Assembly (NCBI GenBank): GCA_028279745.1
Contig: JANQNC010000001.1
Coordinates: 1,170,001-1,202,000, forward strand
DNA: 32,000 nucleotides
Source: Candidatus Nanoarchaeia archaeon
GTDB taxonomy: Archaea; Nanobdellota; Nanobdellia; Woesearchaeales; JANQNC01
Direction: 5' to 3'
Shown: one piece after another, positions 4,255 to 31,824 of the stretch
How the letters are laid out: every line of letters begins with the position of its first letter
How positions within the stretch are numbered: position 1 is the first letter of the stretch
Program-made: the position numbers and the translations under genes
The notes under the pieces: generated by a model
Databases searched by the model: none
The model's input: the letters and a program-made list of their open reading frames with translations, nothing else
What the model was told of the DNA's origin: nothing

Positions 4255-4264
4255 GGTGAAGAAT

Positions 4265-9886: not shown

Positions 9887-9898
9887 TTTTATTTCACC

Positions 9899-10600: not shown

Positions 10601-10606
10601 TTTTTA

Positions 10607-11323
10607 TCACTTCAACAATTCTTTAATCTTATTCTTGTCAACCTTTCTGAATTTTTTCTCTTCAGTTGTCAAGTAAACTGCATCTACTCTGTCACTATTA
10701 AAGTTAGCATCAAGAACTTTTTTCAAAGACTTAACAGCTAAACTTATAGCCTCGTCGATCTTCATTGTCTCCTTGTACTCTTTGTTAAGAACTTCAAGGA
10801 TTTCGGAATCTCCTTCACCCATAGCGGTAGCTTTGAATCCGAAATAGATACCTGAAGGTTCTGTAACATAAAGCTTAGGGCCTTCATTATCAATACCTGC
10901 AATCATCAAGCTAACTCCGAAAGGTCTTAGACCTCCTGATTGTGTGCAAAGCTGTTTAAGATCAGAAACATCCTTAACTACTTCAATAATATCAACAGCG
11001 CCATCAAAAGAAACCCTGTGTTGTTGAGCCTTAAGCTGAGCTCTCTCGATTAAAACTCTACCGTCAGAAACTAGTCCCGAAACAGTTACTGCAATGTGCT
11101 CATCGATCTGATAAATCTTTTCAATAGATTCTGGAACCATCAACTTGTCAATAATCCTTTTATCTGCTACGATAACTACTCCATCCTTGCAGATCATACC
11201 TACAGCTGTTGTTCCTTGTTTGACGGTCTTTTTTGCATATTCAACCTGCAATAATCTTCCGTCAGGACTAAACATTGTGATAGCCCTATCATATCCCATC
11301 AATTGGTGTGGTACTGGTTGCAT
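10607..11323 (-). CDS. psmA: proteasome subunit alpha
   Basis: YDRAITMFSPDGRLLQVEYA alpha-subunit signature. 238 aa. Confidence 0.95.
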   Translation of the reverse strand: MQPVPHQLMGYDRAITMFSPDGRLLQVEYAKKTVKQGTTAVGMICKDGVVIVADKRIIDKLMVPESIEKIYQIDEHIAVTVSGLVSDGRVLIERAQLKAQQHRVSFDGAVDIIEVVKDVSDLKQLCTQSGGLRPFGVSLMIAGIDNEGPKLYVTEPSGIYFGFKATAMGEGDSEILEVLNKEYKETMKIDEAISLAVKSLKKVLDANFNSDRVDAVYLTTEEKKFRKVDKNKIKELLK

Positions 11324-11346
11324 TTTTCTTTACCCCCTCGTTTTTT

Positions 11347-11688
11347 TTAAGCAATAAAATTTTCTGCTTTATTCAACACGCCAGAAGTACCTAAACTTCT
11401 AACGGTATTATCTTTAATCAATGCTAAACAAGCCTTTAGCTCATTAACATGCTTTGTCTCCACTCTTAAAATTCCTTTATTGTTACTATACTTGTCAGCT
11501 AAGAACATGATGCCTGCTTTCCCATAGTTTAAAGTTCCTAAATAAGAAAGACAACTAGTTTCAATACTCTTCTTTATGGTGCTAGAGCTAACTTTCTTGC
11601 TTGAAATCACTTCAAAGGCAACGTATCTTTTCTTTTCCCTTAAACTTGGTATTAATGTTTTCAGTTTTGTAATCGGTATCAACTCCAT
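11347..11688 (-). CDS. rnp2: RNase P protein component 2 (Pop5/Rpp14 homologue)
   Basis: LPSLREKKRYVAFEV N-terminal signature. 113 aa. First gene of the exosome/proteasome superoperon. Confidence 0.8.
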   Translation of the reverse strand: MELIPITKLKTLIPSLREKKRYVAFEVISSKKVSSSTIKKSIETSCLSYLGTLNYGKAGIMFLADKYSNNKGILRVETKHVNELKACLALIKDNTVRSLGTSGVLNKAENFIA

Positions 11689-11798
11689 ATATTTTCAAGA
11701 GAACGTAGTATTCTGATACCATCTTTTTCCGCGTTCTTCTCTCTCTGGCTTAAAAGGAGGCAGAAGTCATATTTAAAGGTTACGGATGCAATATATTG

Positions 11799-12143
11799 TC
11801 ATTCCTTAAAGAATTTCTGTTCCTCGAACCCTGAAAGCTCGTCTATAAGCTTCTGAGCAGATTGATCGTTAGGAACTATGTCTGTGCTGCTACAATAAGG
11901 ACATCTTTCAGACTGTTTAGAGCCTTCAACTCTGAAGAAGTCATAACCACAATTGTTGCACTTGTAGGGTTCGCCATTCTTAGGTTTTTCAGGCAAAGCT
12001 CTTTCCTCTTTTTTTGGATTTATTGGTTTGCCGTGAGTTAAACATGAATTGCATAGAAGATTGTCTTCATCGTCATGTCCCATCTCGCTCATAGCAACTT
12101 TCTTTTTACAGCCTTTACATATAATTTTTGTAGTGTCATCCAT
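11799..12143 (-). CDS. double zinc-ribbon protein (hypothetical)
   Basis: Two CxxC...CxxC pairs: CKGC...CNSC and CNNC...CPYC. I moved the start from the track position 12200 to the ATG at 12143 (MDDTTKIICKGC), removing an AT-rich hydrophobic extension. A TTTATAATA box lies about 30 nt upstream on the minus strand. Confidence 0.6.
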   Translation of the reverse strand: MDDTTKIICKGCKKKVAMSEMGHDDEDNLLCNSCLTHGKPINPKKEERALPEKPKNGEPYKCNNCGYDFFRVEGSKQSERCPYCSSTDIVPNDQSAQKLIDELSGFEEQKFFKE

Positions 12144-12242
12144 ATATAGATTATTAATCTTGAATATTATAAACTTTACTATTTTGAAATAGATAAACAA
12201 GAATACAAAAGAATAAAAAGGTGGGAATCTAAATTACTTTTT

Positions 12243-12920
12243 ATGAAAAGAACACTTCTAAGTTTGAGGAAATCTATCGAAAGAGCAAAGAAGAAAAAGG
12301 TAGATATGAATGAGAAGATCGATCCTGAAAAGGCTTTGTATGACTTTAGTGAGAGAGAAAAACAGTATCTGCAAAGATCGATAATATCGTCTATCAAGCT
12401 TCTTTCTAAGAAAACAGATGATCCTCTGATTGGAAAGTTACAACAAGCTAAAACATACGAAGAGATGGAGAACGTCATTGCTGAGTTAGAGAAAATTGAG
12501 CCAAAAAAAGAGAAGAAAGTTGGTGGATTGAAGGTTAGTGTGCCTAAGCTGCCAGTTGCTATACGTGAGGAAATAAGTGCAGATGTTGATGAAATGAAAG
12601 AGTGTTATTCTGGGGGATTGTATAGAAGCGCAACAATTTTGTGTGGAAGAATTTTAGAAGTTGCTCTTCATCGTAAATATTTTGAGGTTACGGGAAAAGA
12701 TATACTTGTTACAAATCCTGGAGTTGGATTGGGGAAGTTAATCGCTAAACTAAAAGAGAAAGAAGTTGAATTTGCTCCTGGGGTGACGGAACAGATACAC
12801 TTAGTAAATCAGATAAGAGTTGAGGCAGTACACAAAAAGACAAAAGTGTTCTACCCTACAAAGGAACAGACACAAGCAACAATACTATATTCTATGGACA
12901 TATTGAAGAAATTATTTTGA
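12243..12920 (+). CDS. hypothetical protein: Lys/Glu-rich coiled-coil N-terminal half plus a DUF4145/HEPN-like C-terminal helical domain with an Rx4H motif
   Basis: The C-terminal CYSGGLYRSATILCGRILEVALHRKY...LGKLIAKL...NQIRVEAVHKK matches my memory of the DUF4145-type module. RVEAVH (12816..12833) fits the HEPN Rx4-6H motif. Confidence 0.6.
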   Translation: MKRTLLSLRKSIERAKKKKVDMNEKIDPEKALYDFSEREKQYLQRSIISSIKLLSKKTDDPLIGKLQQAKTYEEMENVIAELEKIEPKKEKKVGGLKVSVPKLPVAIREEISADVDEMKECYSGGLYRSATILCGRILEVALHRKYFEVTGKDILVTNPGVGLGKLIAKLKEKEVEFAPGVTEQIHLVNQIRVEAVHKKTKVFYPTKEQTQATILYSMDILKKLF

Positions 12921-14991: not shown

Positions 14992-15615
14992 TTATAAGAA
15001 ACTTAGGTAGTCAAGCTTGTTAGCAAAAGCATCAGTCCTAGGTTCATAATGTTTCAATACAGTAACAACATCCCATAATCCTGTAACAAAAGATTCTCTT
15101 TGGCCTTCTGGTATGTTGAACTTAACCTTTTGGTTGCCGTAAGTTAACATTTTCTTTTTTAGATCTATGTCTAGCTGAGATTTAGGGTTTTGTGTCACAT
15201 AATCTACAACCTTAGCGAGTTCTTCATTAGACACTGTAACTCCTGGCACGCCTAAACTTGCGCAGTTGCCCCAAAAGATTTCAGCCATGCTTTCTCCTGC
15301 AACAATGGCGTCAATACCAAACCTATGCAAACCTTGAGGTGCATGCTCTCTTGATGAACCACATCCAAAGTTTTCACCTGCAAGAAGGATATTAGCTCCT
15401 TTGTAATTTGGATCATTAAAAGGATGCTCCTTTACTTCCTTACCGTCCTTATACCTCTCATCAATAAAAACATAGTTCCCCATGTTAGAGAAAGTTATCT
15501 CTTTCAAGAACCTAGCAGGGAGAATATCGTCGGTGTTTAAGTTAGGTTGTGGTTTGGGAATACCTGTGCCTTTAATCCCAACTATCATATTTTCTTTTAT
15601 CACTAATTTTTTCAT
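14992..15615 (-). CDS. leuD: 3-isopropylmalate dehydratase small subunit, long bacterial-type
   Basis: GENFGCGSSREHAPQGL signature. 207 aa. Lies immediately downstream of leuC. Confidence 0.9.
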   Translation of the reverse strand: MKKLVIKENMIVGIKGTGIPKPQPNLNTDDILPARFLKEITFSNMGNYVFIDERYKDGKEVKEHPFNDPNYKGANILLAGENFGCGSSREHAPQGLHRFGIDAIVAGESMAEIFWGNCASLGVPGVTVSNEELAKVVDYVTQNPKSQLDIDLKKKMLTYGNQKVKFNIPEGQRESFVTGLWDVVTVLKHYEPRTDAFANKLDYLSFL

Positions 15616-15616
15616 C

Positions 15617-17029
15617 TTACCACCTCATTAAGTAAGGTCTAGGATCTGCAATCCTTCCTTCAATAGCGCTTGAAGCAACACCTGCAGGACTCATCAAGTG
15701 AGTTCTGGTTTCTTGACCTTGTCTTCCTTTGAAAGGTCTGTTAGATGTTGATGCTGTAACATTATATCCTTCTAACGTGTCAGGACTCATAGCCAAACAC
15801 ATTGAACAACCAGGATTTCTCCACTCTGCACCAGCCCGTTTGAATATTAAATCAAGACCAAGCATTTCAGCTTCATACTTGACTTGTTCTGAACCTGGCA
15901 CAACCAGTGTTTTAACCTTAACTTTGTTTCCTTCAAGAACCTTTGCTGCATCTTCTAAATCACTTAATCTGCCGTTTGTACATGAGCCGATAAATGCCAC
16001 ATTAATCTCTATGTCATTTACGTTCTGTCCTGGGATCAGGTTCATATAAGAACAAGAGTCAAGCGCTTCATACGGATCTATAAGTCCAAGGCCATCCTTG
16101 GTGCAAGGAACAATTTGGTTGACCGCAACTGCCTGATCAGGTGAAGTTCCCCATGTAACCATTGGTTCAACAGCTGAACTGTTTATTGTGACTTCAGAGT
16201 CATATTCTGCATCTTTATTTGAAGCAACTTTTCTCCAGCTTTGTACAGCTTTTCTGAAATCTTGTTTTGGAGCGAATTCTCTTCCAAGAAGATATTTGAA
16301 AGTTGTATCGTCAGGATTTACATAACAAACTCTTGCACCACCTTCAATTCCCATGTTGCACATAGTCATCCTTTCTTCCATACTCATGTTGTCAACCGTA
16401 CTTCCGCTTAGTTCATAAGCAAAACCATTTCCACCTTTAACAGTCAGTTTGTTAATGGTGTAAAGGATAAGATCTTTAGCACTAACTCCTGCTTGTAAGT
16501 TTCCTTCGAAGTTAATCCTTTTAACTTTCAGCTTATCTTTTTTAGGATCTAAAGCTAAAGTTTGAGTTGCAAGAAGGTCTCTAACTTGAGTTGTTCCAAT
16601 TCCTAGATAGATACTTCCGAAAGCACCATGGGTTGCTGTGTGTGAGTCACCACAAGCACCTGTTTGACCGGGCCAGATAATCCCTTTTTCAGGGAACACA
16701 ACATGACAAACACCTTGTCCTTTGCCAGGACCAAAATAAGTTATCTTGGCTTGTTTTACGTTGCTCTCCAAAGTAGCAGTCATAAGCTCTGCCTTTTTAT
16801 CTTTGAAAGGCCGAGTTCTGCATTTTGTGGGTATAACGTGATCCAAGATTGCATAAGTAAGATCTGGTCTTTTAACTTTGATCTTTCTTTCTCTAAGTTC
16901 TTCAAAAGCCTGAGGGCTTGTAACTTCATGCATCAGATGTCTTCCAATAAAGAACTGAACTCTTCCATCAGGCAGTTTCCCAACAACGTGTTTTTTCCAA
17001 ACTTTATCATATAGTGTTCCTTTTGACAT
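15617..17029 (-). CDS. leuC: 3-isopropylmalate dehydratase large subunit, long bacterial-type
   Basis: The N-terminus TLYDKVWKKHVV, plus CGDSHTATHGAFG, IGSCTNGRLSDL and GCSMCLAMSPD (Fe-S cluster Cys ligands), are all as in bacterial LeuC. 470 aa. Confidence 0.95.
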   Translation of the reverse strand: MSKGTLYDKVWKKHVVGKLPDGRVQFFIGRHLMHEVTSPQAFEELRERKIKVKRPDLTYAILDHVIPTKCRTRPFKDKKAELMTATLESNVKQAKITYFGPGKGQGVCHVVFPEKGIIWPGQTGACGDSHTATHGAFGSIYLGIGTTQVRDLLATQTLALDPKKDKLKVKRINFEGNLQAGVSAKDLILYTINKLTVKGGNGFAYELSGSTVDNMSMEERMTMCNMGIEGGARVCYVNPDDTTFKYLLGREFAPKQDFRKAVQSWRKVASNKDAEYDSEVTINSSAVEPMVTWGTSPDQAVAVNQIVPCTKDGLGLIDPYEALDSCSYMNLIPGQNVNDIEINVAFIGSCTNGRLSDLEDAAKVLEGNKVKVKTLVVPGSEQVKYEAEMLGLDLIFKRAGAEWRNPGCSMCLAMSPDTLEGYNVTASTSNRPFKGRQGQETRTHLMSPAGVASSAIEGRIADPRPYLMRW

Positions 17030-17035
17030 TTTAAT

Positions 17036-18148
17036 TTACCTCTTAACTGATTCGCACACTTGGTCAACAAGAGTGTCGAGACTTTTTGTAGCGTATTCTT
17101 TGTCTCTTAAGTTAGCTAAGACAGCTTCTTTAATTGCGTCAGCAGCCTTAACTTCTTTGGACTGTTCAAGCATCATCGCATAAGACAACAATGCGGCTTC
17201 AGGTTTTACCAATTGAACTTTTTCAGGTACGAATGTGTCAGGTATATATTCTGAGCCGTCCATCTCAAACCATTTATCCGGAGCAGTTCCGTGAATAGGT
17301 TCAAACATTGAAGGGAATGTACCTGTCGGATTTAAATTTCCTGATACTGCAGTTCCCATACCTCCTTGAATCACAGCTCCAAGATCAGTTGTGATATCGC
17401 CAAACATATTTTCAGTAATAACAACGTCAAATTGTTCTGGCTTTAAAACCATCTGCATGATAAAAGCGTCAATGTGCATATAGCTTATATTCAAGTCATC
17501 TTTTTGTTTGTACTCTTCGAAAACTCTTGACCAAGGACTTGCTGCATATGTAAGAACATTGTTTTTGAAAACAAAATGAAGTTCTGGCTTGTCTCCTTTC
17601 TTTCTAGCTCTTGCTCGCTCTTCAGCAAACTCAGCTAACCTCTTAACACCTTTGTAGCTGCAGTGCATCTCTTGAATGCCAACTTCATCATCAGTTCCAG
17701 CATTTTTAACTTCACCTTTAGCGACATAAAGTCCTTCTGAGTTTTCTCTGCAAATCTCAAAATTGATGTGTCTGTAATCTTTTCCAACAATGATTGAAGG
17801 AACGCCTTCAGGTAATACTACAGGTCTTAGATTAACGTACTGATCAAACTCTTGTCTTATCTTAAGCAAAATTCCAATCTCTAAAATTCCTGGCTTGATC
17901 TTTGTAGGGTCGCCAATAGCGCCTAAAAATATTTGGTCATATTGTTTAAGTTCATTAAGCTCGGAGTCTCTTAACTCTTTGATATCATGTTTTAAGAAAT
18001 ATGCTGCGTCATAATTAAAAATTTCATGTTTTACTGGCAATGTTAACTTATCTTGTACTGCATCAGCAACTTTCAGTGCAGCATCTGTAACAGTAATTCC
18101 GTTCAAGTCACCGGGGATCACTGCAAAATTGTGGTAGTCTTTTTCCAT
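17036..18148 (-). CDS. leuB: beta-decarboxylating dehydrogenase family protein: 3-isopropylmalate dehydrogenase by operon context, with motifs closer to the tartrate/homoisocitrate dehydrogenase branch
   Basis: FLGAIGDP, YVNLRPV, CRENSEGLY and NMFGDITTDLGAVIQGGMGTAVSGNLNP. GGAGG Shine-Dalgarno motif before the ATG. First gene of a tight leuB-leuC-leuD operon. Confidence 0.75.
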   Translation of the reverse strand: MEKDYHNFAVIPGDLNGITVTDAALKVADAVQDKLTLPVKHEIFNYDAAYFLKHDIKELRDSELNELKQYDQIFLGAIGDPTKIKPGILEIGILLKIRQEFDQYVNLRPVVLPEGVPSIIVGKDYRHINFEICRENSEGLYVAKGEVKNAGTDDEVGIQEMHCSYKGVKRLAEFAEERARARKKGDKPELHFVFKNNVLTYAASPWSRVFEEYKQKDDLNISYMHIDAFIMQMVLKPEQFDVVITENMFGDITTDLGAVIQGGMGTAVSGNLNPTGTFPSMFEPIHGTAPDKWFEMDGSEYIPDTFVPEKVQLVKPEAALLSYAMMLEQSKEVKAADAIKEAVLANLRDKEYATKSLDTLVDQVCESVKR

Positions 18149-20328: not shown

Positions 20329-20442
20329 TTTGTCAAAAAAAGAGAAGGTTGTTTAAAACACTTTTGTCTCGGAAATTGTATATTCAAAAAGGAAACCTTT
20401 TTAAAGGAAAAAACTGAGTTTAGTGGTTAAGGGGGTTGTTTG

Positions 20443-23400
20443 ATGAAACTAAGCAAGGTCTTTCTAAAAGAGACCGTAATTGGGATGTCAGTAATACTGT
20501 TTGCATTACTTGTTGTACTAATTGCAGGGCCTCAAGATGGGCTGACTGGACATGCTGTTTATGAAGAATGTCAAAACTGCACCTCCGTAAATTCTTTAGA
20601 GATGAAGTATTTGGGTGAAGCTGAGGATGAAGTGGCTTATGTTTATTCTATGCAGGGTGTTGATGAGTATACAATAGACGAAGATGGAATGTTTACAGTC
20701 GTTGATGTATATGATGAGATGATAGTCTCAGTCGGAGATGTTAATGAAACAATCAATGCATCGTGTGGAAGTTCTTTAGAAAGTGGAGATGAGTTTGGAG
20801 AGCTGGTCATCGAGAGTGTTGATACAGGAGTAGAGGAAGTTTGTGAGCTAATTGAGATCCCAGATGAAAATGAAACAAACGAAACAGTTGGTCTGAATGT
20901 TACTTTGAATGAGACAATCGTTAATGAAACAATAAATGAAACTTTTGTGAATGAAACCATTAATGAAACTGTAAATGAAACTGTAGAGATAAATGTTACA
21001 ATTAATGAAACTAATCAAACTGTTGAGGTAAATGTTACTGTCAATGAAACTAATCAAACAATAAATGAAACGGCTGAAGAAAATACAACTGATGATTATG
21101 GATCTTTCTCTTATTGTCTAGACAAAGATAATGATGGATATTATGTAACAAACACATCTGCATGTGAAACCTTTATCGTTGTGGAGAATGACGGAAATGT
21201 GATTGCACCAGCAGGCTTTATGGAAGTTAAGGTAATGGCTGCAGAAATAACCTATGGAGCAACAGGACCAGAGATAGATGTATACGTGAAACTTATCGAA
21301 GACGGAGACTACACAACCTTATTTGGTGGAGTGGATGTAGATGGAAATGAAGCGTATAACAAAACACTAACATCAGAAACAGAGATAGCAATAGAAGGAA
21401 GAGCAAAATATGGAAGAAGATTCGACAGAACATACAGATCAGACACAGGAAGCGATCATGTAGAAGTATTGATGGATGGAGACGATCTTCCAGATTATGC
21501 GCCATTTGGAAATCAAGATTCTTTATCGACTATAATTGCGCCATTCGTAGATGAAAATAATAAGATAGACATAGATGTCAACCAAGTATTATTCTTATTC
21601 GAGTTTGCAACACTAAACACCGATGCGGCAGACTTCCAAGACTTAGTAGTATTATTAACATTTGAACCAGACGACTTTCCTTGCGAGTGTGGTGAGTTTG
21701 ATTGTGACGAGAATGATCCAAACATAAACCCTGGTGCCGCAGAAATATGTGACGGGATAGACAACGATTGTGACTTTTTTGCAGATGAAGAATTTGATGA
21801 TGACGGAGACGGATTTACTGTGTGTGGAGGAGACTGTAATGATAATGATGTTAACATAAATCCAAACGCAACTGAAATATGCAACTTCTTAGATGATGAC
21901 TGCGATGGAGAAATAGATGAAGGATTTGACTTAGATAATGATGGGTTTACAACATGCGGAGGAGATTGTGATGATAACAATTCAGAAGTAAACCCAGACG
22001 CTACAGAAATATGCGACGATGAAATTGACAATGATTGTAATGGTGATGTGGATTTTGAAGATGATGAATGTGCAAACATTTTACCAACAGCATCAATCAT
22101 AAGTCCTCTGTCAGGAAGTAACTTCAAACTAAACGAACAGATAGTATTCTCAGGAATCGGTACAGATAGTGATGGAACAGTTGTAAGTTACTCATGGGCA
22201 TCTAACGTTGACGGAACATTTGGAAGCAATGGAACTGTAACACACTCAGGACTTTCAATAGGAACACACGTAATCACACTGACTGTTACAGATGATCGAG
22301 GAGGACAGACAACAGATACAGTAACAATCACAATACTTGCTTTAAATTCACCAACAGCATCAATAATATCTCCTGCAGATGGATCAGACTTCAAACACAC
22401 AAACGAAATAACATTCTCAGGATTAGGAGATGATACAGACGGAACAATTGTAGGTTACTCTTGGGAGTCAAACGTAGATGGGGTATTGAATGATTCGTCC
22501 TTATTTACAACAAATGCATTAAGTGTGGGCATACATACAATAACATTCACAGTAGAAGATGATGATGGACTAACAGATGTAGATGAGATCACAATAACAG
22601 TAAAAGAGTTAGAGGCACCAACAGCTTCAATACTTTCACCTAACGATGGAGATGATTTCAAAGACGGAGACAATGTGTTGTTTTCGGGAACAGGATCAGA
22701 TACTGATGGAAGTGTTGTAAGTTACCAATGGTCATCAAGCATCGATGGTTTGATAGGAAACACAACATCATTCTCAACAACAGACTTGACAGTAGGATTA
22801 CATGAGATTGTACTAGTTGTAGTGGATGATGATGGATTAAATGATACAGACAGCATAGAGATTGAGGTAAAAGCATTGCGAGCACCTACAGCATCAATCA
22901 TATCGCCTAATGACGGAGACCATTACAAAGAAGCAGATAACATACTGTTTAGCGGAACTGGAAGTGATCCAGATGGTTATATCACAAAATGGTATTGGAG
23001 TTCTAGCGTTGATGGCTTGTTTAAAGAACAAACTGGAGGAAATGCAAGCACATTCTTCTATGACTCACTAAGTTTAGGAACACACGATATTACTCTGACA
23101 GTTGTAGACAATGATGGGTTACAATATGTTGATACATTTACAGTAACAATTGATGTAAACCCATTATTTGCACCAACCGCATCAATCATAACGCCACTGG
23201 ATGGAGTAGTATTCAGAGAAGGAGAAGTTATTGTCTTTAGTGGATATGGAGATGACATAAACGGAAATGTGACAGACTATGATTGGGTTTCAAGTTTAGA
23301 TGGAAGCATTGGAAGCGATATGACATTTACACATTCTAGTCTAAGTTTAGGAGAGCATGATATAACACTAATTGTTACAGACGATGACGGGCAAACAGGA

Positions 23401-26400
23401 GATGACACAATAACCATCACAATAATTGACAACGATTCACCAACCGCATCAATCACATCGCCAACAGATGGGGATAGTTACAAAGAAGGACACACAATCT
23501 TGTTTAACGGATACGGAGACAATGAAACTATAGTTGGATATTCATGGGCAAGTAATTTGGATGGTGTGATAGGTAATAGTTCAACATTCTCACTTGATAG
23601 CTTAACAGTGGGAGAACATGTAATAACCTTTACAGTATTAGACGATGATGGACAGACAGGATCAGACTCAATCACGATAAACGTAAATGCATTAGAAGCG
23701 CCAACAGTTTCAATAATAGCTCCACTAGATGGTTCTGATTACAAACATACACAACCAGTATACTTCGAAGGTGTAGGAACCGATACAGATGGAACAATTG
23801 AAAGTTACCATTGGACTTCTGATGTGGATGGGGTGATAGGGAATTCAAGCAGCTTCATAACAAGCACATTATCAACAGGACTGCATACAGTAACTTTAAC
23901 AGTAATAGATAGTGATGGTTTAGTGGGAACTGATGAGATTGAGTTAACAATAAAAGTTTTAGAAGCACCAACCGTATCGATACTTTCTCCTGATGATGGA
24001 GACAACTTCAAAGAGAATGACTCAATATTATTTAGCGGGATAGGAACAGATGCTGATGGAGTAATAACACAATGGTACTGGTCATCAAGTATAGATGGAT
24101 TAATGCATGAACAGACAGGAGGAAGTGCTAGTACGTTCTACTATCATTCATTAAGTTTAGGAACACATTTGATCACAGTTACAGTAATAGATGATGATGG
24201 ATTGCAGTATGTAGATACATTTACTGTTACAATAGATGTTAATCCTGAGTTTGCGCCAACAGCGTCTATAATCAGTCCGTTAGATGGAGTGGTCTTTAGA
24301 GATAATGATCTGATTGTCTTTAGCGGGCTAGGTGATGATGTAAATGGAGTTGTTGAAAGTTATCATTGGGTAAGCAGTGTGGATGGAACCTTAGGAGATA
24401 GTATGACATTTAACTCAACCGCATTAAGTGTTGGGACACATGACATAACATTAACTGTAACAGATGATGATGGACAGACAGGAGATGACACTATCAGCAT
24501 TACAGTGTTGGATAATGATATGCCAACAGCATCAATCATGGCACCAACCGATAACGATAATTTCAAAGATGGCCAAACAATATTATTCAGCGGGTTAGGA
24601 GGAGATGAAGTTATAACTGGATACGCTTGGTCAAGCAACATAGACGGTTTGATTGGAAACCTGTCTTCTTTTTCAACTTCAGATCTTAGTCTAGGAGAAC
24701 ATATCATTACATTTAGAGTGTTTGATGATGACGGACAGTCAGGTTCAGACTCAATCACGATTACAATAAATCCTTTAGTAGCACCAACCGCTTCTATAGT
24801 TAGTCCATTAGATGGAACAGATTACAAAGATGGACAAACTGTGCTATTTAGCGGGGTGGGAACAGACACAGACGGTGTGATCTCAAGTTATTACTGGAGT
24901 TCAAGTATAGATGGAGTTATTGGGAATTCGAGCAGTTTCAGTTCAAGCAATCTATCAGTCGGTCTTCATACTATAACATTCAGAGTAGTTGATGATGACA
25001 GCTTAATATCAACAGACACGATAGAAATTACAATCAAAGCACTAGAAGCACCTACTGCTTCTATACTAAGTCCAAATGATGGAGATCATTACAAAGAAAA
25101 TGACTCAATACTATTTAGCGGGACAGGAAGCGATCCCGATGGAGCTATAGTGAAGTGGACCTGGAGCTCAAGCATAGACGGACTGATCAAAGAACAGAAT
25201 GGGGGAACATCAAGCACATTCTTCTACAATGGATTAAGTTTAGGAACACACGATATAACATTAACTGTGGTTGATGATGACGGACTAAAATATGTAGATA
25301 CATTCACAGTAACAGTTGATGTAAATCCATTATTTGCACCAACAGCTTCTATTATTTCACCTCTTGGCGGCACAGTATTCAGAGATGATGACTTAATCGT
25401 GTTTAGTGGTTATGGTGATGATGTCAATGGAGTTGTTGAAGGTTATAGTTGGGTTTCAAGCTTAGACGGCACTATCGGAAATAATATGACATTCACCACA
25501 GATTTACTAAGCCAAGGAGTACACACTGTAACACTAACAGTAACAGATGATGATGGTCAGACAGGAGACGACACAATACAAATTACTGTGTTAGACAATG
25601 ATTCGCCTACCGCATCAATCACATCTCCAAATGATAATGACAATTTCAAAGAAGGACAAGAAATACTGTTTAGTGGGTATGGGGATAACGAGGTTATCAC
25701 TTCATACACTTGGACAAGTAATTTAGATGGAGTAATAGGAAGTGGTGCTACATTCTCAACAACAAACTTGACAGTAGGAGAACATGAAATAACCTTAACA
25801 GTATTAGATGATGATGGTCAAACCGGGTTTGACACAATAACTATAACAGTTAATGCATTAGAAGCACCAACAGTATCTATAATAGCTCCTCTGGATGGGG
25901 CAGATTACAAATACACATATCCTGTTTACTTTGAAGGTGTGGGGAGTGATTCAGATGGGGTTGTGGTTAATTACCAGTGGACTTCTGACATCGATGGGGT
26001 CATAGGAAACACAAGCAGTTTCATTACTGATGAACTTTCATTGGGATTACACACCATCACTCTTACTATTGTAGATGATGATGGGCTAATAGCAACAGAC
26101 GAGATAGAAGTAACAATAAAGCCATTGACTGCGCCTTCAGTGTCTATCTTAAGTCCAGATGAAGGAGATCACTTCAAAGAGAACGATTCAATATTATTTA
26201 GCGGGATAGGAACAGATTCAGATGGAATAATAACACAATGGTATTGGTCAAGCAGTATAGATGGATTATTCCATGAACAAACTGGGGGAAGTGCAAGTAC
26301 ATTCTATCACAATGAGCTGAGCTTAGGAACACACCTAATAACTGTAACAATCATAGACGATGATGGACTACAATATGTAGACACATTCACAGTAACAATT

Positions 26401-29400
26401 GACCTAAATCCAGAATTCGCACCAACAACATCTATAATTTCACCATTAGATGGATCAACATTTAGATCAGGAGACAATGTATTGTATAGTGGGTATGGAG
26501 ACGACATAAATGGATACATAACAGACTATTACTGGACATCAGACATAGATGGAGTGATAGGAAATGAGATGACATTTAGTTATTCTAATTTGACTGTGGG
26601 GCTTCATACAATAACATTGACTGTGACAGATGATGATGGGCAAACAGGAGACGATTCAATAACTGTAACTGTACTAGATAATGATGTGCCGACATCATCA
26701 ATAGTATCGCCAGGTGAAGGAGATAACTTCAAAGATGGACAGAGCATATTATTCAGTGGAGTGGGAGATAATGAAGTCATAACCGGATATGAATGGGTGT
26801 CAAACATAGACGGAGGATTAGGAAATAGTTCAACATTCTCAACTTCAATACTAAGTCTGGGTGAGCATACAATAACATTTAGAGTGTTTGATGATGACGG
26901 ACAATCTAACTCAGACTCAATAATGATCACAATAAATCCATTAGTTGCACCAACCGCTTCAATCATAAGTCCAATAGATGGAACAGACTACAAAGACGGC
27001 CAAACAGTGTTGTTTAATGGGATTGGAAGTGATACAGATGGTTTGATAGCTAGTTATTACTGGTCATCAGATGTAGATGGAGTAATAGGAAACACAAGCA
27101 GCTTTAGTTCAAACAACTTATCAGTTGGATTGCATACGATAACATTCAGGGCGGTAGATGAAGATGGGTTAATGGCATCAGATAGTGTAGACATAACAAT
27201 CAAAGCACTAGAAGCACCAACAGCTTCAATAATCAATCCAAACGATGGAGATCACTATAAAGAAAATGATTCAATCTTATTTAGTGGAATTGGATCAGAT
27301 CCAGATGGTGCTATAGTGAAGTGGTATTGGTCATCAAGTATAGATGGATTATTCCATGAACAAACTGGAGGATTAGCAAGCACATTCTATTATAACTCTT
27401 TGAGTCTAGGAACTCACCTGATTACATTAACAGTTGTAGATGACGACGAAATAAAATATGTAGATACATTCACAGTAACAATTGACGTAAATCCATTATT
27501 TGCACCAACAGCGTCTATCTTAAGTCCTGTAGAGGGCACAGTCTTTAGAGATGGAGACAGAGTGTTGTTTAGTGGATATGGCGATGACATAAATGGAGTT
27601 GTTGAAAGTTACTATTGGACATCAGACAAAGAAGGTGTTTTAGGAAATACAATGACATTTAATGTTTCTACCTTAAGTGTTGGGGTGCATGAGATAACAC
27701 TAACAGTTACAGACGATGACGGGCAAACAGGAGACGACTCAATTGTCATAACTGTACTAGATAACGATTCACCAACAGCATCAATCACATCACCTGCAGA
27801 TGGAGACAATTTCAAAGAAGGACAAAACATATTCTTCACAGGACTAGGGGATAATGAGGTCATTAGTTCATACACATGGGTAAGCAGTCTAGATGGAAGC
27901 TTAAGCTCAAGCCAGTCATTCACATACTCAGAGTTGACTATAGGCGAACATGTAATCACACTAACTGTAACAGATGATGATGGACAGTCAGCATCAGACT
28001 CAATTACAGTTACAATAAACCCATTAGTTGCACCGGTAGCATCAATAATCTCACCAGTGGACCAAGCAGACTACAAAGAAAACCAGTTTGTAATGTTCAA
28101 TGGGGTCGGGAGTGATAGCGACGGAAGCATAGTAGATTACTACTGGACATCAGACGTAGAAGGAGTAGTAGGTAATGGAAACATGTTCAGTACTGATGAG
28201 CTATCAATAGGCTATCACACAATAACACTAACAGTTGTAGATAATGACGGATTGATAGGAACTGATGAGTTGGAGATAACAATCAAACCATTAACAGCAC
28301 CAACCGCATCAATCGTAAAACCAGACACGGGAGACCACTTCAAAGAACAAACACCAGTAGAGTTCATCGGCTCTGGCTCAGATCCAGACGGTGAGATAAT
28401 AGAATGGATATGGACAAGCGATGTAGATGGAGAGTTTGGTAGTTCGCAAAGGTTCAACTATTCAGAACTAAGTCTGGGAAGACACGATGTCACTTTGACT
28501 GTAGTGGATGATGACGCACTAAGATACACAGACACATTCACAATATGGATAGAGATAGATCCTCTAAGATCACCTAATGTAACCATAACAACACCACAAG
28601 ATAAAATTACAGTGAAAGAAGATGTAGTGGTTGTATTTGATGCGAACGTAACATATGACCCTGTATCAACAGGATCGTCATACTACTGGGTGAGCGACAT
28701 AGATGGAATGCTGGATGAAGGAACAGGAGTTCCAGTGTTGTTTAGTACGGATGAGTTATCTATTGGATATCATACAATAACACTAACAACAATAGACTCA
28801 AGAAACTTATCAGGATCAGACACAGTGCATCTATGGATAGCACCATTGCTTTCTCCAGAAGTCAATATCAGTTCACCACCAAATAACTCAACATACTGGG
28901 AAGGAGACTCAATCAATTTCTCCGCATTGATAACAGATGACGGAACGATACAATCAATACTATGGAACTCAGATCTAGACGGAAATATTGGAAACAGTTC
29001 AAACTTCACCTACTCAGGATTAACAGTAGGAGAACACAGAATAACCTTGATAGTTGTAGATGATGATAATTTAACCACGGTAACACAAATAACTGTGCTT
29101 ATCAAGAAAAAAGAATCAGGCGGAGGAGATGATGACGATGATGAAGATGGAGGCGGATCTGGAGGCTCCGGAGGATTAGGAGGAATACCTAAACCAGTCG
29201 AAATTGAAGAACCTGAAGAGTTAGAAGAAGGACTTCAGATAAAAATAGTGGAATCACCTTCCGGACTAAATATTGAAGAAGGAAAATTCGTTATTGTTGC
29301 AGAAATAATAAACAATGGAGACACTGTGTTGAAGGATATTAATGCGGAATTAGAAAAGATTGATGGATGGAAATCTAATACAGTATACATCGGTGAGTTA

Positions 29401-29916
29401 GCTGTTGATGAAAGAGTAATTGTTACATTCGAAGTAGAATCAGAAATATGTGCGCTTGGGAAAGAAGTAGGACAAATAGACAGAGAGCTAGAAATAGTTG
29501 CGGTGGCAGAGAATGAAGCTGTAAGTGATACAGATAAAGTGATGGTGGATGTAGAAGCAGAAACATTTGCAGTATTAAATGATGTAATTGACAATCAGAT
29601 AAAAGTATGTTTCATTATAGACAATAAAGGTAATGATGAAAGAAATAAAGTAGAGATAGAAATTGGAGTGTATGAAGAGGAGATAGCAGTGCTTCTTGAC
29701 TACATAACAAACATAGACGTAGAGAGTGACGAAATATTTATAAAAACAAAAGAGTATGAGTTAAGCTATATACCAGAAACAAAAAGCTACACATTAAGAG
29801 CAGACCTTTACGAAAAGGGAAAATTGTTCAGTAGCGAATATAAAATAGCAGACTCAGAAACTCAAGTAGAACTGCAAAAAACAGGAAAATCATTATGGGA
29901 ACAGATGTTTTCGTAA
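20443..29916 (+). CDS. giant (3157 aa) N-terminally anchored cell-surface protein with 26 PKD-like domains; putative adhesin
   Basis: Uninterrupted 9474-nt ORF in AT-rich DNA. The ATG at 20443 follows GGGGG. N-terminal TM VIGMSVILFALLVVLIAG. PKD-type motifs (Y.W.S..DG and H.ITLTV.DDDG) recur 26 times. See the repeat features below. Confidence 0.95.
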   Translation: MKLSKVFLKETVIGMSVILFALLVVLIAGPQDGLTGHAVYEECQNCTSVNSLEMKYLGEAEDEVAYVYSMQGVDEYTIDEDGMFTVVDVYDEMIVSVGDVNETINASCGSSLESGDEFGELVIESVDTGVEEVCELIEIPDENETNETVGLNVTLNETIVNETINETFVNETINETVNETVEINVTINETNQTVEVNVTVNETNQTINETAEENTTDDYGSFSYCLDKDNDGYYVTNTSACETFIVVENDGNVIAPAGFMEVKVMAAEITYGATGPEIDVYVKLIEDGDYTTLFGGVDVDGNEAYNKTLTSETEIAIEGRAKYGRRFDRTYRSDTGSDHVEVLMDGDDLPDYAPFGNQDSLSTIIAPFVDENNKIDIDVNQVLFLFEFATLNTDAADFQDLVVLLTFEPDDFPCECGEFDCDENDPNINPGAAEICDGIDNDCDFFADEEFDDDGDGFTVCGGDCNDNDVNINPNATEICNFLDDDCDGEIDEGFDLDNDGFTTCGGDCDDNNSEVNPDATEICDDEIDNDCNGDVDFEDDECANILPTASIISPLSGSNFKLNEQIVFSGIGTDSDGTVVSYSWASNVDGTFGSNGTVTHSGLSIGTHVITLTVTDDRGGQTTDTVTITILALNSPTASIISPADGSDFKHTNEITFSGLGDDTDGTIVGYSWESNVDGVLNDSSLFTTNALSVGIHTITFTVEDDDGLTDVDEITITVKELEAPTASILSPNDGDDFKDGDNVLFSGTGSDTDGSVVSYQWSSSIDGLIGNTTSFSTTDLTVGLHEIVLVVVDDDGLNDTDSIEIEVKALRAPTASIISPNDGDHYKEADNILFSGTGSDPDGYITKWYWSSSVDGLFKEQTGGNASTFFYDSLSLGTHDITLTVVDNDGLQYVDTFTVTIDVNPLFAPTASIITPLDGVVFREGEVIVFSGYGDDINGNVTDYDWVSSLDGSIGSDMTFTHSSLSLGEHDITLIVTDDDGQTGDDTITITIIDNDSPTASITSPTDGDSYKEGHTILFNGYGDNETIVGYSWASNLDGVIGNSSTFSLDSLTVGEHVITFTVLDDDGQTGSDSITINVNALEAPTVSIIAPLDGSDYKHTQPVYFEGVGTDTDGTIESYHWTSDVDGVIGNSSSFITSTLSTGLHTVTLTVIDSDGLVGTDEIELTIKVLEAPTVSILSPDDGDNFKENDSILFSGIGTDADGVITQWYWSSSIDGLMHEQTGGSASTFYYHSLSLGTHLITVTVIDDDGLQYVDTFTVTIDVNPEFAPTASIISPLDGVVFRDNDLIVFSGLGDDVNGVVESYHWVSSVDGTLGDSMTFNSTALSVGTHDITLTVTDDDGQTGDDTISITVLDNDMPTASIMAPTDNDNFKDGQTILFSGLGGDEVITGYAWSSNIDGLIGNLSSFSTSDLSLGEHIITFRVFDDDGQSGSDSITITINPLVAPTASIVSPLDGTDYKDGQTVLFSGVGTDTDGVISSYYWSSSIDGVIGNSSSFSSSNLSVGLHTITFRVVDDDSLISTDTIEITIKALEAPTASILSPNDGDHYKENDSILFSGTGSDPDGAIVKWTWSSSIDGLIKEQNGGTSSTFFYNGLSLGTHDITLTVVDDDGLKYVDTFTVTVDVNPLFAPTASIISPLGGTVFRDDDLIVFSGYGDDVNGVVEGYSWVSSLDGTIGNNMTFTTDLLSQGVHTVTLTVTDDDGQTGDDTIQITVLDNDSPTASITSPNDNDNFKEGQEILFSGYGDNEVITSYTWTSNLDGVIGSGATFSTTNLTVGEHEITLTVLDDDGQTGFDTITITVNALEAPTVSIIAPLDGADYKYTYPVYFEGVGSDSDGVVVNYQWTSDIDGVIGNTSSFITDELSLGLHTITLTIVDDDGLIATDEIEVTIKPLTAPSVSILSPDEGDHFKENDSILFSGIGTDSDGIITQWYWSSSIDGLFHEQTGGSASTFYHNELSLGTHLITVTIIDDDGLQYVDTFTVTIDLNPEFAPTTSIISPLDGSTFRSGDNVLYSGYGDDINGYITDYYWTSDIDGVIGNEMTFSYSNLTVGLHTITLTVTDDDGQTGDDSITVTVLDNDVPTSSIVSPGEGDNFKDGQSILFSGVGDNEVITGYEWVSNIDGGLGNSSTFSTSILSLGEHTITFRVFDDDGQSNSDSIMITINPLVAPTASIISPIDGTDYKDGQTVLFNGIGSDTDGLIASYYWSSDVDGVIGNTSSFSSNNLSVGLHTITFRAVDEDGLMASDSVDITIKALEAPTASIINPNDGDHYKENDSILFSGIGSDPDGAIVKWYWSSSIDGLFHEQTGGLASTFYYNSLSLGTHLITLTVVDDDEIKYVDTFTVTIDVNPLFAPTASILSPVEGTVFRDGDRVLFSGYGDDINGVVESYYWTSDKEGVLGNTMTFNVSTLSVGVHEITLTVTDDDGQTGDDSIVITVLDNDSPTASITSPADGDNFKEGQNIFFTGLGDNEVISSYTWVSSLDGSLSSSQSFTYSELTIGEHVITLTVTDDDGQSASDSITVTINPLVAPVASIISPVDQADYKENQFVMFNGVGSDSDGSIVDYYWTSDVEGVVGNGNMFSTDELSIGYHTITLTVVDNDGLIGTDELEITIKPLTAPTASIVKPDTGDHFKEQTPVEFIGSGSDPDGEIIEWIWTSDVDGEFGSSQRFNYSELSLGRHDVTLTVVDDDALRYTDTFTIWIEIDPLRSPNVTITTPQDKITVKEDVVVVFDANVTYDPVSTGSSYYWVSDIDGMLDEGTGVPVLFSTDELSIGYHTITLTTIDSRNLSGSDTVHLWIAPLLSPEVNISSPPNNSTYWEGDSINFSALITDDGTIQSILWNSDLDGNIGNSSNFTYSGLTVGEHRITLIVVDDDNLTTVTQITVLIKKKESGGGDDDDDEDGGGSGGSGGLGGIPKPVEIEEPEELEEGLQIKIVESPSGLNIEEGKFVIVAEIINNGDTVLKDINAELEKIDGWKSNTVYIGELAVDERVIVTFEVESEICALGKEVGQIDRELEIVAVAENEAVSDTDKVMVDVEAETFAVLNDVIDNQIKVCFIIDNKGNDERNKVEIEIGVYEEEIAVLLDYITNIDVESDEIFIKTKEYELSYIPETKSYTLRADLYEKGKLFSSEYKIADSETQVELQKTGKSLWEQMFS
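20869..21090 (+). repeat. N-x-T sequon microrepeat: 17 N-glycosylation sequons in 74 codons, based on a reiterated AATGAAAC unit
   Basis: NETNETVGLNVTLNETIVNETINETFVNETINETVNETVEINVTINETNQTVEVNVTVNETNQTINETAEENTT, counted by hand. Confidence 0.9.
21682..22071 (+). repeat. three tandem Cys/Asp-rich repeats resembling the MopE-type 'putative metal-binding motif'
   Basis: DCDENDPNINPGAAEICDGIDNDCD / GGDCNDNDVNINPNATEICNFLDDDCDGEIDEGFD / GGDCDDNNSEVNPDATEICDDEIDNDCNGDVD. Confidence 0.7.
22078..29109 (+). repeat. array of 26 tandem PKD/Ig-like domain-coding repeats (87-96 codons each)
   Basis: Each unit reads (L/N)xxPT(A/V)SIxSPxDGxxFKxxxxIxFSGxGxDxDGxxxxYxWxSxxDGxxGxxxxFxxxxLxxGxHxITLTVxDDDGxxxxDxIxIxV. 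Unit boundaries were located by hand at 22081, 22342, 22609, 22876, 23164, 23431, 23692, 23959 and onward. Confidence 0.9.
22876..28290 (+). repeat. five head-to-tail super-repeats of exactly 1083 nt (361 codons = four PKD-like subtypes of 96+89+87+89 codons)
   Basis: Equivalent first codons of the 96-codon subtype fall at 22876, 23959, 25042, 26125 and 27208. The next unit starts at 28291. Every interval is 1083 nt. Confidence 0.9.
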
Positions 29917-30036: not shown

Positions 30037-30663
30037 ATGGTGTATATATTCGGGCTTGACATTCCGTTAATAGAGGTATTCTTCATACTGTTGATAATAG
30101 GAATAATACTGGCGGCAGTAATAGTCTACATTATCGTGAAAATAATGCAGATGAACAAAAAGATGGACTATGTTTTGAGTCAGGAGAAAAAGAAACTAGT
30201 GCAGTTCTCAGACATAACTGAAAAGGAGAAAAAAGAGTTAGCTGATTTAAGGAAATTAGAAAGAGAGCTAGATGATCTGCTTGATCAAGAAGAAGATGCA
30301 GTCAAAGCATTAGAAAAGTTAAAGACTGTAAGAAAGACAAAACCCAAGAAGAAAGCAGTTCGCCATGAGCCAACCAGTTCACCAGTAGAGAAAGGAAAAG
30401 ACTTCGTAAAAGCTTTACTTGGAGCAACAATGAGACACGAAGAAAAACCAGTCTGGAGGACAGAGAAGTGGAGAAAAGAAGGTTTGGTCTTGGTGTTAAG
30501 AAATGATAATGGTTCCATAAAAGAATGGAGAAAACATCCGCTATCAGGCATACCAGAATCACAAGTTCCATGGAAAAAAGAACACTGGTACTCTGAAGGA
30601 GATGTTGCAGTGTTAAGAAGACCAGATGGAACCTTAATCGACTGGGAAAAACTAAAGAAATGA
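30037..30663 (+). CDS. N-terminally anchored hypothetical protein with a charged coiled-coil region and two C-terminal Trp-rich repeats
   Basis: AGAGGT SD. TM FFILLIIGIILAAVIVYIIV. KE-rich helix. Repeats are VWRTEKWRKEGLVLVLRNDNGSIKEWRK and PWKKEHWYSEGDVAVLRRPDGTLIDWEK. Confidence 0.7.
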   Translation: MVYIFGLDIPLIEVFFILLIIGIILAAVIVYIIVKIMQMNKKMDYVLSQEKKKLVQFSDITEKEKKELADLRKLERELDDLLDQEEDAVKALEKLKTVRKTKPKKKAVRHEPTSSPVEKGKDFVKALLGATMRHEEKPVWRTEKWRKEGLVLVLRNDNGSIKEWRKHPLSGIPESQVPWKKEHWYSEGDVAVLRRPDGTLIDWEKLKK

Positions 30664-30732: not shown

Positions 30733-31824
30733 TTATCTACTTCTACTCTTACTTAACATATAACCAATGAAAAGAACAGCGACCACAACAATGATCAGGA
30801 TAAACATCAGGAAATCATTTTTGTTCAATTCTTCATCCTCATTGAAAGGAATCATACCTTCACTATCTTCACCATTTGCAGATCCATCTGTGCTATCTGT
30901 CGGTTGAGTATTATCTGGGTTTGTGGTTGATGAATCTCTAGGAGTGGGAGTTATGCCAGATCCTTCGCTGCCTGGACCTCCTGCACCACCGCTGCCTTCA
31001 CCTTCACCAGAAGCACCACCTTCGCCAGTGTTGTTTGTAGGGACTGGAGGAGGTAAACCAGGATCAGGTATCCAATCTTTCTTCAAAGGAAGATTATCCG
31101 TATTGGAACCAATTGCAACAGTGTCATCACAGAAACTGTCGTAGTTATCATCCAAGCAACCTTGACCTTCTAAGCCGAAATCACCCCAATAGTTTCCGCC
31201 TGTGTTTGGACCATCAACAACATTCCTCTTAGTCTTTTGAGGAACATTCCAGTTATTATTGCTATTATCAAAAGCGTTAACCGCATTAGCTAGATAGTTA
31301 TCATAAAAGTAGTTATTGTTGGAGTTGTCAACGTAAATACCAGAACCTTGAGCACCAGTAATAGTATTAGAGTAAAACTGGTTATTATTTGAGTTAACTA
31401 CATGTACGCCATGAACAGCAGAATCAGTTATTTCGTTTTCAATTATTACATTAGTAGATGATTGAACAACCTTGATACCTGTGTCACAGCTATCTATAGT
31501 ATTGTATGCTACGCTGCTGCCATCACTGCCTATAGAAACACCTTGTTGTATGCCTATTTGGAAGTTCTCAACAGTACAATGACTTACGCTTAACTCAGAG
31601 AAGTCCTGCATCAGAATGCCTGTGCCAGAACCATCGCCTCTAATAACGTGGTCGTTACAGTTAAGGATTACATCATTGGCACCAATTGTCAAACCATCGT
31701 CTGAACAGTTAAGATCTTCAAGTAGGTCTACACTTTCAGTAAGAACATCGCCGCAGCTTACAGCAAATGCTGTGCTGATTGATAATAAAATTGCAAATAA
31801 AAACGTATAGTATTTCATATTCAT
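30733..31824 (-). CDS. secreted right-handed parallel beta-helix (NosD-like / PbH1 repeat) protein with a Gly/Ser/Pro/Thr-rich stalk and a C-terminal TM anchor
   Basis: Signal peptide MNMKYYTFLFAILLSISTAFA. Repeats are N.I..N.I......G(I/V).V..S..N (e.g. NVIIENEITDSAVHGVHVVNSNNNQFYSNTITGAQGSGIYVDNSNNNYFYDN). GGNYWGDF and D..CDD...I....D..PL motifs are typical of NosD-type domains. The C-terminus is FLMFILIIVVVAVLFIGYMLSKSRSR. Confidence 0.8.
   Translation of the reverse strand: MNMKYYTFLFAILLSISTAFAVSCGDVLTESVDLLEDLNCSDDGLTIGANDVILNCNDHVIRGDGSGTGILMQDFSELSVSHCTVENFQIGIQQGVSIGSDGSSVAYNTIDSCDTGIKVVQSSTNVIIENEITDSAVHGVHVVNSNNNQFYSNTITGAQGSGIYVDNSNNNYFYDNYLANAVNAFDNSNNNWNVPQKTKRNVVDGPNTGGNYWGDFGLEGQGCLDDNYDSFCDDTVAIGSNTDNLPLKKDWIPDPGLPPPVPTNNTGEGGASGEGEGSGGAGGPGSEGSGITPTPRDSSTTNPDNTQPTDSTDGSANGEDSEGMIPFNEDEELNKNDFLMFILIIVVVAVLFIGYMLSKSRSR

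Follow-up and report, generated by a model that had tools for sequence, protein, structure and literature searches.

Probable ancient amplification of a four-domain PKD block in the stalk of a predicted giant surface protein from a Woesearchaeales archaeon

Anatomy of the giant gene and its repeat array

The stretch of DNA analyzed here (the window) comprises 32,000 nucleotides of contig JANQNC010000001.1 from Candidatus Nanoarchaeia archaeon (Woesearchaeales; assembly GCA_028279745.1, positions 1,170,001 to 1,202,000), and our subject is a cell-surface protein gene within it (20443..29916, + strand) that carries a long tandem array of PKD-type units. A single open reading frame (ORF), 20440/20443-29916 (+), encloses the entire repeat array; the mechanical ORF list opens it with a TTG at 20440, whereas the database protein P0001 (NCBI data), which is 100% identical over 3157 aa, opens with the ATG at 20443, one codon on. 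The product is predicted to be a giant cell-surface protein with an extended PKD stalk and, as its sequence features suggest, a surface or adhesive role.

Near the N-terminus the translation has a hydrophobic segment (VIGMSVILFALLVVLIAG, 20476..20529, +), predicted to be a signal peptide or a signal anchor, and further on Tandem Repeats Finder (TRF) located short tandem repeats with periods of 12, 27 and 39 nt (20908..21059, +) that code for N-x-S/T sequons (NETI/NETV/NQTV). The whole protein has 63 such sequons, 24 of them within aa 1-545. Three Cys-rich MopE-type motifs (21700..22080, +) follow at aa ~421-545, matched by the Pfam family PF11617 above cut-off in 3 stretches (E 7.3e-26), and after them matches to PKD, K319L-like PKD and Big_7 profiles span about 2350 residues. 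The PKD profiles above their curated cut-offs were PF22352 (E 3.7e-114, 17 stretches), PF00801 (E 1.9e-91) and PF18911 (E 8.3e-71). With unit boundaries set by anchoring on the conserved 'xPTASI' start, 26 PKD-type units were obtained in total: u1-u3 of 89 codons each (22081..22881, +), units 4-23, which make up a five-block array, and u24 (91 codons), u25 (94) and u26 (89), which together occupy 28297..29118 (+). The PKD region is devoid of cysteine. The gene closes (29119..29913, +) with an acidic/Gly-rich linker and a C-terminal domain in which two beta-sandwiches precede a short helix; for this domain, modelled with a predicted local distance difference test score (pLDDT) of 90.5, only generic fold matches were found (adhesin, transglutaminase-barrel and RbmA-like). 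Pfam gave no significant match on the N-terminal 425 aa or the C-terminal 243 aa, and the translation, which ends ...QKTGKSLWEQMFS, has no C-terminal hydrophobic helix or membrane anchor of the PGF-CTERM or transmembrane (TM) tail type.

The array consists of five tandem copies of a 1083-nt block at 22882-28296, all on the + strand: copy 1 (A1 B1 C1 D1, 22882..23964), copy 2 (A2 B2 C2 D2, 23965..25047), copy 3 (A3 B3 C3 D3, 25048..26130), copy 4 (A4 B4 C4 D4, 26131..27213) and copy 5 (A5 B5 C5 D5, 27214..28296). Each block joins four units, A (96 codons), B (89), C (87) and D (89), to give 361 codons. Ungapped self-identity of the DNA is 0.589 at lags of both 1083 and 2166 nt and falls to ~0.30 at 1080, 1086, 2163 and 2169 nt. 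A MAFFT alignment of the five copies contained zero gaps, and therefore compensating indels are absent. The original prediction, made from the letters of the window alone, had proposed five exact 1083-nt super-repeats of this composition, and unit anchoring, the self-identity lags and the gap-free alignment all agree with it; its register was right and its frame was set 6 nt (two codons) upstream of 22882.

The four subtypes are distinguishable, as had also been claimed: units of the same subtype are 58-89% identical, compared with 40-61% for units of different subtypes and 43-61% for neighbouring units. Relative to the 89-residue form of B and D, A has a 5-residue insertion and a linker 2 residues longer, and C has a 2-residue deletion. 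In the AlphaFold2 model of an A-B-C-D block, which shows four 8-strand beta-sandwiches arranged on a string (pLDDT 93.7), the insertion of subtype A sits in the strand pair E45-51/E55-60. Inter-domain similarity peaks at lag 4, with a second peak at lag 8 in A, C and D, so that the proposed nesting of PKD unit, four-unit block and two-block 2166-nt periodicity is upheld. The units that flank the array join in the pattern: u3 (22615-22881) is most D-like (mean 58%, vs ~51% to A, B and C), and u24 (28297-28569) is clearly A-like without the 5-residue insertion. The period-4 register therefore reaches one unit past the reported array on either side, and did so already in the common ancestor shared with the ortholog described below.

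A single-block ortholog and the age of the copies

The sole informative homolog was P0003, a 2601-aa protein of the Woesearchaeota metagenome-assembled genome (MAG) GCA_027083015.1. Its units are u1, u2, u3, A, B, C, D, u24, u25 and u26, with lengths of 89/89/89/96/89/88/89/91/91/89, and it thus contains all three downstream units and a single A-B-C-D block. A single block with nearly the same lengths indicates that the four-unit block and its odd unit lengths predate the amplification. The nonsynonymous distance (dN) from the copies to P0003 is 0.39-0.41, compared with 0.18-0.29 among the copies, and the outgroup roots outside all five, which indicates that the amplification is specific to this lineage. 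We also observed that u3 and u24 have the same character in P0003, so that one and a half copies of the period-4 pattern (D' A B C D A') were already in place before the amplification. The A unit of P0003 is closest to A1 (66% identity; 56-64% to the remaining A units), and its D unit is closest to D5 (63%; 54-60% to the remaining D units). Domain repeats are known to expand by duplicating several domains at once in the middle of an array (PMC1553488), and the greater closeness of the two edge units, A1 and D5, to the ortholog fits duplication of this kind.

More distant relatives were sought in several ways. Whole-protein homology searches were swamped by MopE-repeat proteins, leaving P0003 alone useful; when the block alignment served as a profile, all hits were short PKD fragments with no more than 44% identity, and P0003 itself was missed; and genome and metagenome scans with block motifs found nothing nearer than P0003, whose best segment reached 59%. 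Both of the top genomic relatives of the repeat block are Woesearchaeota MAGs. A relative of 880 aa, encoded at 9662-12304 of a contig from Woesearchaeota Meg22_1618_Bin_104 (L003), has a shorter architecture of the same broad group, comprising a u24-like unit (YTDTFTIWI), a u25-like unit and classic PKD units followed by a CARDB-like C-terminus, with no A-type insertion unit. The C-terminal two-sandwich module marks a small family with 44 cluster representatives (P0221-P0263) of about 700 to 3600 residues. P0221 has the N-terminal domain and the C-terminal module in common with the giant protein, but its stalk consists of Cys-rich MopE/DUF4215-like repeats instead of PKD units; in P0230, P0232 and P0256, a TM segment and a basic tail are found at the C-terminus. 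Judged from these architectures, the stalk appears to be an exchangeable spacer between conserved ends.

The copies themselves are ancient. Identity at four-fold sites between copies is 0.44-0.62, compared with 0.435 expected by composition, and Nei-Gojobori (NG86) estimates between copies gave synonymous distances (dS) of 1.2-2.3 and dN of 0.18-0.29 (dN/dS 0.10-0.21); synonymous sites are saturated and each copy has been kept by purifying selection. By these values, the 8-domain (2166-nt) duplication that the original prediction took to be the last large one was not a recent event. Exact matches between copies, and exact repeats anywhere in the gene, reach at most 32 nt, and a GENECONV-like search for long identical tracts yielded only tracts of 13-15 polymorphic sites with borderline p values and no recent conversion. 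The array now gives little substrate for homologous recombination, and its copy number is probably fixed.

Module length was held constant while the sequence diverged, as had been noted. The absence of indels over 5.4 kb, previously taken as the mark of a strong structural constraint, was observed, and we asked how much it means. The branches of the tree of the five copies sum to 0.91 substitutions per site (about 329 aa substitutions), and there is not one indel. Against P0003, length differs in 2 of the 10 units (C, 87/88; u25, 94/91) over roughly 550 substitutions, the latter number being an estimate from unit identities. At this rate ~1.2 indels would be predicted in the array and the probability of none is about 0.3, so that zero indels are unremarkable and do not signal exceptional constraint. 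More distant PKD arrays have unit spacings of 85-96 residues, mostly uniform inside one protein, which suggests that the fold accepts other lengths and that compact sandwiches by their nature seldom undergo indels. It is fair to speak of structural constraint, but zero indels alone are no sign of selection on the length of the super-repeat.

Genealogy of the five copies

Whole-copy pairwise identities range over 0.67-0.72 for nucleotides and 0.64-0.76 for amino acids, with the pairs 1-3 and 2-4 highest, and the clustering of these two pairs in the computed matrix is far beyond chance, in line with the odd/even alternation first noticed by eye. Among copies 1-4, the quartet sites supporting 13|24, 14|23 and 12|34 number 74/39/30 for nucleotides and 32/4/3 for amino acids, and bootstrap support for 1+3 and 2+4 is 95-100% both on amino acids and on codon positions 1+2. 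Trees from third codon positions were uninformative or contradictory, as saturation predicts, and were not used for the genealogy. When A, C and D were taken together, amino acid identity was 0.768 for 1-3, 0.809 for 2-4 and 0.728 for 3-5, against 0.64-0.69 for the other seven pairs, and the residues private to one pair numbered 27 for 2-4, 21 for 1-3, 16 for 3-5, 10 for 4-5 and 3-7 for each of the remaining pairs. All three pairs at a distance of two copies are therefore raised, indicating that copy 5 is an odd-type copy and not a half-and-half chimera. The alternation runs A-B-A-B-A across the array with copy 5 included and unit B excluded: copies 2 and 4 are of the even type, copy 3 is of the odd type and nearest to copy 1 and then to copy 5, and copy 5 is a diverged odd-type copy that has kept many ancestral states. 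The alternation claimed for copies 1/3 and 2/4 thus holds in A, C and D, where it extends to 3-5, and fails in B, where none of the 32 amino acid sites of the 13|24 kind is found and about 10 would be expected from the length of the unit.

Strict two-against-three splits among the five copies separate unit B from the rest of the block. The split 24|135 occurs 8 times in A, 4 in C and 4 in D; 13|245 occurs 4 times in A, 4 in C and 3 in D; and 35|124 occurs twice in A, 3 times in C and twice in D. None of the three occurs in B. The split 45|123 occurs 5 times in B, once in C and not at all in A or D. Together, the splits with copies two apart number 34 against 1 for 45 in A, C and D, and 0 against 5 in B. 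The nucleotide quartet counts in B (13|24, 14|23 and 12|34: 7/17/8) likewise lack the alternation, and bootstrap trees of B joined 2+3 (72%), 4+5 (62%) and 1+2+3 (65%).

Sliding windows on codon positions 1+2 placed the discordance within the block: identity between copies 2 and 4 is 86-93% in A and in C/D and drops to 58-71% at block aa 91-165, and 4-5 is the best pair over block aa 121-180. In maximum chi-square segment scans, for which the null maxima were 23-25 across 1500 permutations, copy 4 resembled copy 5 and not copy 2 at aa 109-214 (39.1), copy 2 resembled copy 3 and not copy 4 at aa 110-146 (35.9), and copy 2 was unlike copy 4 at aa 104-160 (31.1). On the DNA, the B2 segment that contradicts the 2-4 pairing (block aa ~104-160) lies at 24274..24444 (+), where copy 2 resembles copies 1 and 3, and the matching B4 segment, where copy 4 resembles copy 5 and not copy 2, lies at 26440..26610 (+). 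Unit B accordingly splits into 1-2-3 | 4-5, and this B2/B4 segment is the only significant mosaic in the array. Accelerated evolution of B4 alone was considered as a cause of the discordance and ruled out, both by the 31 of 38 informative sites at which B4 and B5 have common states and by the five 45|123 splits, which the outgroup polarises in both directions. The states shared by B4 with B5, together with this two-way polarisation, require at least one extra old exchange, by gene conversion or by a crossover inside the block, in which some 55-100 codons of B would have been replaced.

Copy 5 had been described as mosaic, with diagnostic strings of both types combined even within its first unit. 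At the 32 amino acid sites dividing 1/3 from 2/4, it carries the odd state at 16 and the even state at 11. Of these sites, 18 can be polarised with the outgroup P0003, which has the state of copy 5 at 13 of them; this indicates that the mixed strings of copy 5 are mostly shared ancestral states. At block aa 259-280, for example, the outgroup joins copies 2, 4 and 5 at 4 of 6 consecutive sites, so that most of the 'NALEAPTVSIIAP...PVYFEGVG' string seems to be a derived feature of copies 1 and 3. The last unit of copy 5, which had been called similar to copies 2 and 4, is nearest to D3 (67% identity, compared with 58-60% to D2 and D4). No maximum chi-square scan with copy 5 as the recombinant was significant (719, 60 and 116 of 1500 permutations exceeded the observed values), and its nucleotide-level odd and even states showed no clustering (33 runs, 34 expected). 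Copy 5 is a conservative, diverged odd-type copy, and chimerism is not demonstrable in it. Recombination among the repeats has left a mosaic, as the original prediction had it, but in B2/B4 rather than in copy 5. A seemingly mosaic copy in a repeat array calls for an outgroup before recombination is invoked; here the truly discordant segment lay elsewhere.

Origin of the array, related systems and genomic setting

The observations as a whole are, in our judgement, probably best explained by an ancient, lineage-specific amplification of a PKD stalk block with a reticulate history, in which copy 5 is of the odd type. Unequal recombination between the repeats, or slippage during their replication, would have multiplied the A-B-C-D block in frame into a tandem array of five, for the most part in a register of two blocks (2166 nt). 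These events would be ancient, the synonymous sites having since been randomised and the copies having kept their length under purifying selection. The genealogy would be reticulate, with A, C and D pairing at a lag of two copies (1-3, 2-4 and, more weakly, 3-5) and B splitting 1-2-3 | 4-5. An Ig-like domain contributes ~4 nm, and at this value the gain of 16 domains would extend the reach of the stalk by ~60-70 nm; the length of the stalk would plausibly determine the distance of the conserved terminal domains from the cell. Block duplication of this sort is the standard mode of domain-repeat growth, met here in a little-studied archaeal lineage. A single tandem duplication of 2166 nt in a three-copy array, with copy 3 as the hybrid, would give five copies in one step; it was rejected because support for 1-3 is concentrated at block aa 228-316 and that for 3-5 is highest at aa 316-361, and because B2 and B4 are dissimilar.

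Several findings weigh against the explanation by ancient amplification. As the single 2166-nt duplication does not fit the pattern along the segments, no unique series of events is derivable for the five copies. The synonymous trace of the alternation is faint: at codons with a conserved residue there are 30 quartet sites for it and 15/15 for the two other groupings, and the fraction of invariant residues using the same codon is 0.59 for 2-4 and 0.56 for 1-3, against 0.50-0.55 for the other pairs. The genealogy hence comes mainly from amino-acid-changing sites, which selection could shape. In copy 5, the odd and even amino acid states are mildly clustered (9 runs, where 14 +/- 2.4 are expected; P = 0.033), a 36-nt tract of A5 (WYWSSSIDGLFHEQ, 27331..27366, +) matches copies 2 and 4 over an unbroken run of 13-14 polymorphic sites (global p 0.03-0.075) and thus forms a borderline small even-type patch, and bootstrap support is divided 55/28/15% over three positions in the tree. 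Finally, there is a single informative ortholog, on a short-read contig at 2.4x, where loss or collapse of copies is possible.

The clustered residues and the A5 tract are what would be expected if the last 8-domain (2166-nt) duplication gave rise to copies 1-4 and copy 5 were an odd/even recombinant or conversion chimera, and the strong pairing of 1-3 and 2-4 also suits this account. We nevertheless regard it as unlikely: the breakpoint scans, the interleaved nucleotide states and the agreement with the outgroup described above all speak against it, as do the nearness of D5 to D3 and the raised 3-5 identity across A, C and D, and it is silent on unit B, the seat of the strongest mosaic signal.

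The contrast between the strong alternation at replacement sites and the weak one at synonymous sites raises a different explanation, that the odd/even amino acid states are selected and do not reflect ancestry alone, with an 8-domain period fitting a partner or lattice and module length serving as a ruler. Super-repeats in titin and nebulin do match the period of a partner or lattice, and purifying selection on all copies without length change is compatible with the idea. Saturated synonymous sites, however, predict a weak trace in any case, and what remains of it points in the same direction; the lack of alternation in unit B would be odd for a structural period; and the ortholog works with one block. 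Moreover, family members with Cys-rich stalks of very different lengths argue against a fixed ruler, and the conservation of length is equalled by the low indel rate of the family itself. We consider such selection improbable as the cause of the alternation. A related and still more doubtful conjecture, drawn by analogy, is a rod that would pack in register against other such rods or against a partner, like a titin/nebulin-type ruler or a GhpA-like multimer, with alternating odd and even interfaces and B facing the solvent; neither the faintness of the synonymous trace nor the purifying selection acting on each copy contradicts it.

Tandem repeats are a classic source of assembly errors, and the original prediction had warned of collapse, yet a mis-joined or mis-counted array is highly improbable here, because the copies differ at 28-33% of nucleotides, no exact repeat exceeds 32 nt so that reads of at least 100 nt place uniquely, the frame is intact over 9.5 kb and the contig is 1.3 Mb long.

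Amplification of a multi-domain block has close parallels in the 7-module super-repeats of nebulin and the A-band super-repeats of titin (PMC1553488). As there, the domains belong to one family, similarity peaks at a multi-domain lag (4 and 8 here), amplification is mid-array with the edge units A1 and D5 nearest the ortholog, and neighbours are more diverged than units of the same subtype. The array described here differs in its archaeal host, in its PKD fold, in the absence of introns or exon shuffling, in copies that are far more diverged in DNA than those of recently expanded arrays, and in having no known partner filament with a period to match.

The best match of the modelled block in the PDB was to stem fragments of GhpA from Aureispira (9flu and related entries; Foldseek E about 1e-14), with a sequence identity of only 16-20%. 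In GhpA, 52 Ig-like repeats form a 240-nm prey-catching appendage (bioRxiv 10.1101/2024.01.29.577165). Both are giant surface proteins with a long chain of slightly varying Ig-like domains, which in GhpA serves to reach and hold another cell. GhpA differs in being a bacterial substrate of the type IX secretion system (T9SS) with a C-terminal sorting domain, and in forming disulfide-stabilised heptamers; the PKD region of the archaeal protein has no cysteine for such bonds. No T9SS is known from archaea. The T9SS C-terminal domain (PF18962) gave no Pfam match in the 3157-aa protein, whose own C-terminal domain is the distinct two-sandwich module.

Adhesins such as alpha C/Rib, Bap and Esp have near-identical tandem repeats that undergo concerted evolution and vary in copy number between strains. 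They share with the array the in-frame tandem Ig-like modules, the surface protein context and a presumed origin by unequal recombination, but the near-identity seen there contrasts with 67-72% nucleotide identity, exact matches of at most 32 nt and no recent homogenisation here. Ultrasmall episymbionts provide a further comparison. Their giant surface proteins with PKD domains are often proposed to attach them to a host, and the small-genome Vampirococcus lugosii encodes PKD/adhesion-type proteins of several thousand residues for which host attachment was inferred (PMC8080830). V. lugosii is a bacterium of the candidate phyla radiation (CPR); by analogy, a host-attachment role for the 3157-aa protein is plausible.

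Read as an amplified stalk, the locus offers a clean, well-dated case of the growth of a prokaryotic giant surface protein, by block amplification in the middle of an array that was then frozen because the copies became too diverged to recombine and are under purifying selection. For DPANN archaea, it points to a family in which both terminal modules are conserved and the stalk between them, of PKD units or Cys-rich repeats, is freely exchanged, and to a conserved small membrane-protein neighbour; these are candidate host-contact structures.

That neighbour is a 208-aa gene directly downstream of the giant gene (30037..30663, +). Its product has a hydrophobic segment at the N-terminus, and the coiled-coil matches that Pfam gives for it are weak and stay under the curated cut-offs. 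A counterpart lies beside the ortholog (L001, 8233-8799; 39% identity over 102 aa, E 7e-21), and from this shared position the 208-aa protein may be a partner or anchor of the giant protein. Elsewhere in the window, a complete archaeal exosome/proteasome superoperon (Rpp14/Pop5, proteasome alpha, SBDS, Rrp4, Rrp41 and Rrp42) occupies 7721-11688 on the - strand, and all named relatives of its proteasome subunit are from Candidatus Woesearchaeota or Nanoarchaeia, which, like the relatives of the repeat block, points to a Woesearchaeota-like DPANN archaeon. Upstream of the giant gene there is also a Hel308-type helicase with the archaeal domain 4. Genes for the large and small subunits of an aconitase-family enzyme and for an isopropylmalate/isocitrate dehydrogenase lie at 14992-18148 (-), a trio of leucine-type or related biosynthesis that is notable in a presumed reduced DPANN genome. 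Further putative surface-protein genes were seen nearby, at 3181-4975 (+) and 30733-31824 (-). A nearby ORF of 357 aa has a weak DUF4215-type Cys-rich match (25.3 bits, with a cut-off of 27 bits), an adjoining ORF of 239 aa shows at its C-terminus no more than a very weak resemblance to LPXTG anchors (E 0.21), and a third nearby putative surface ORF encodes a NosD/right-handed beta-helix protein.

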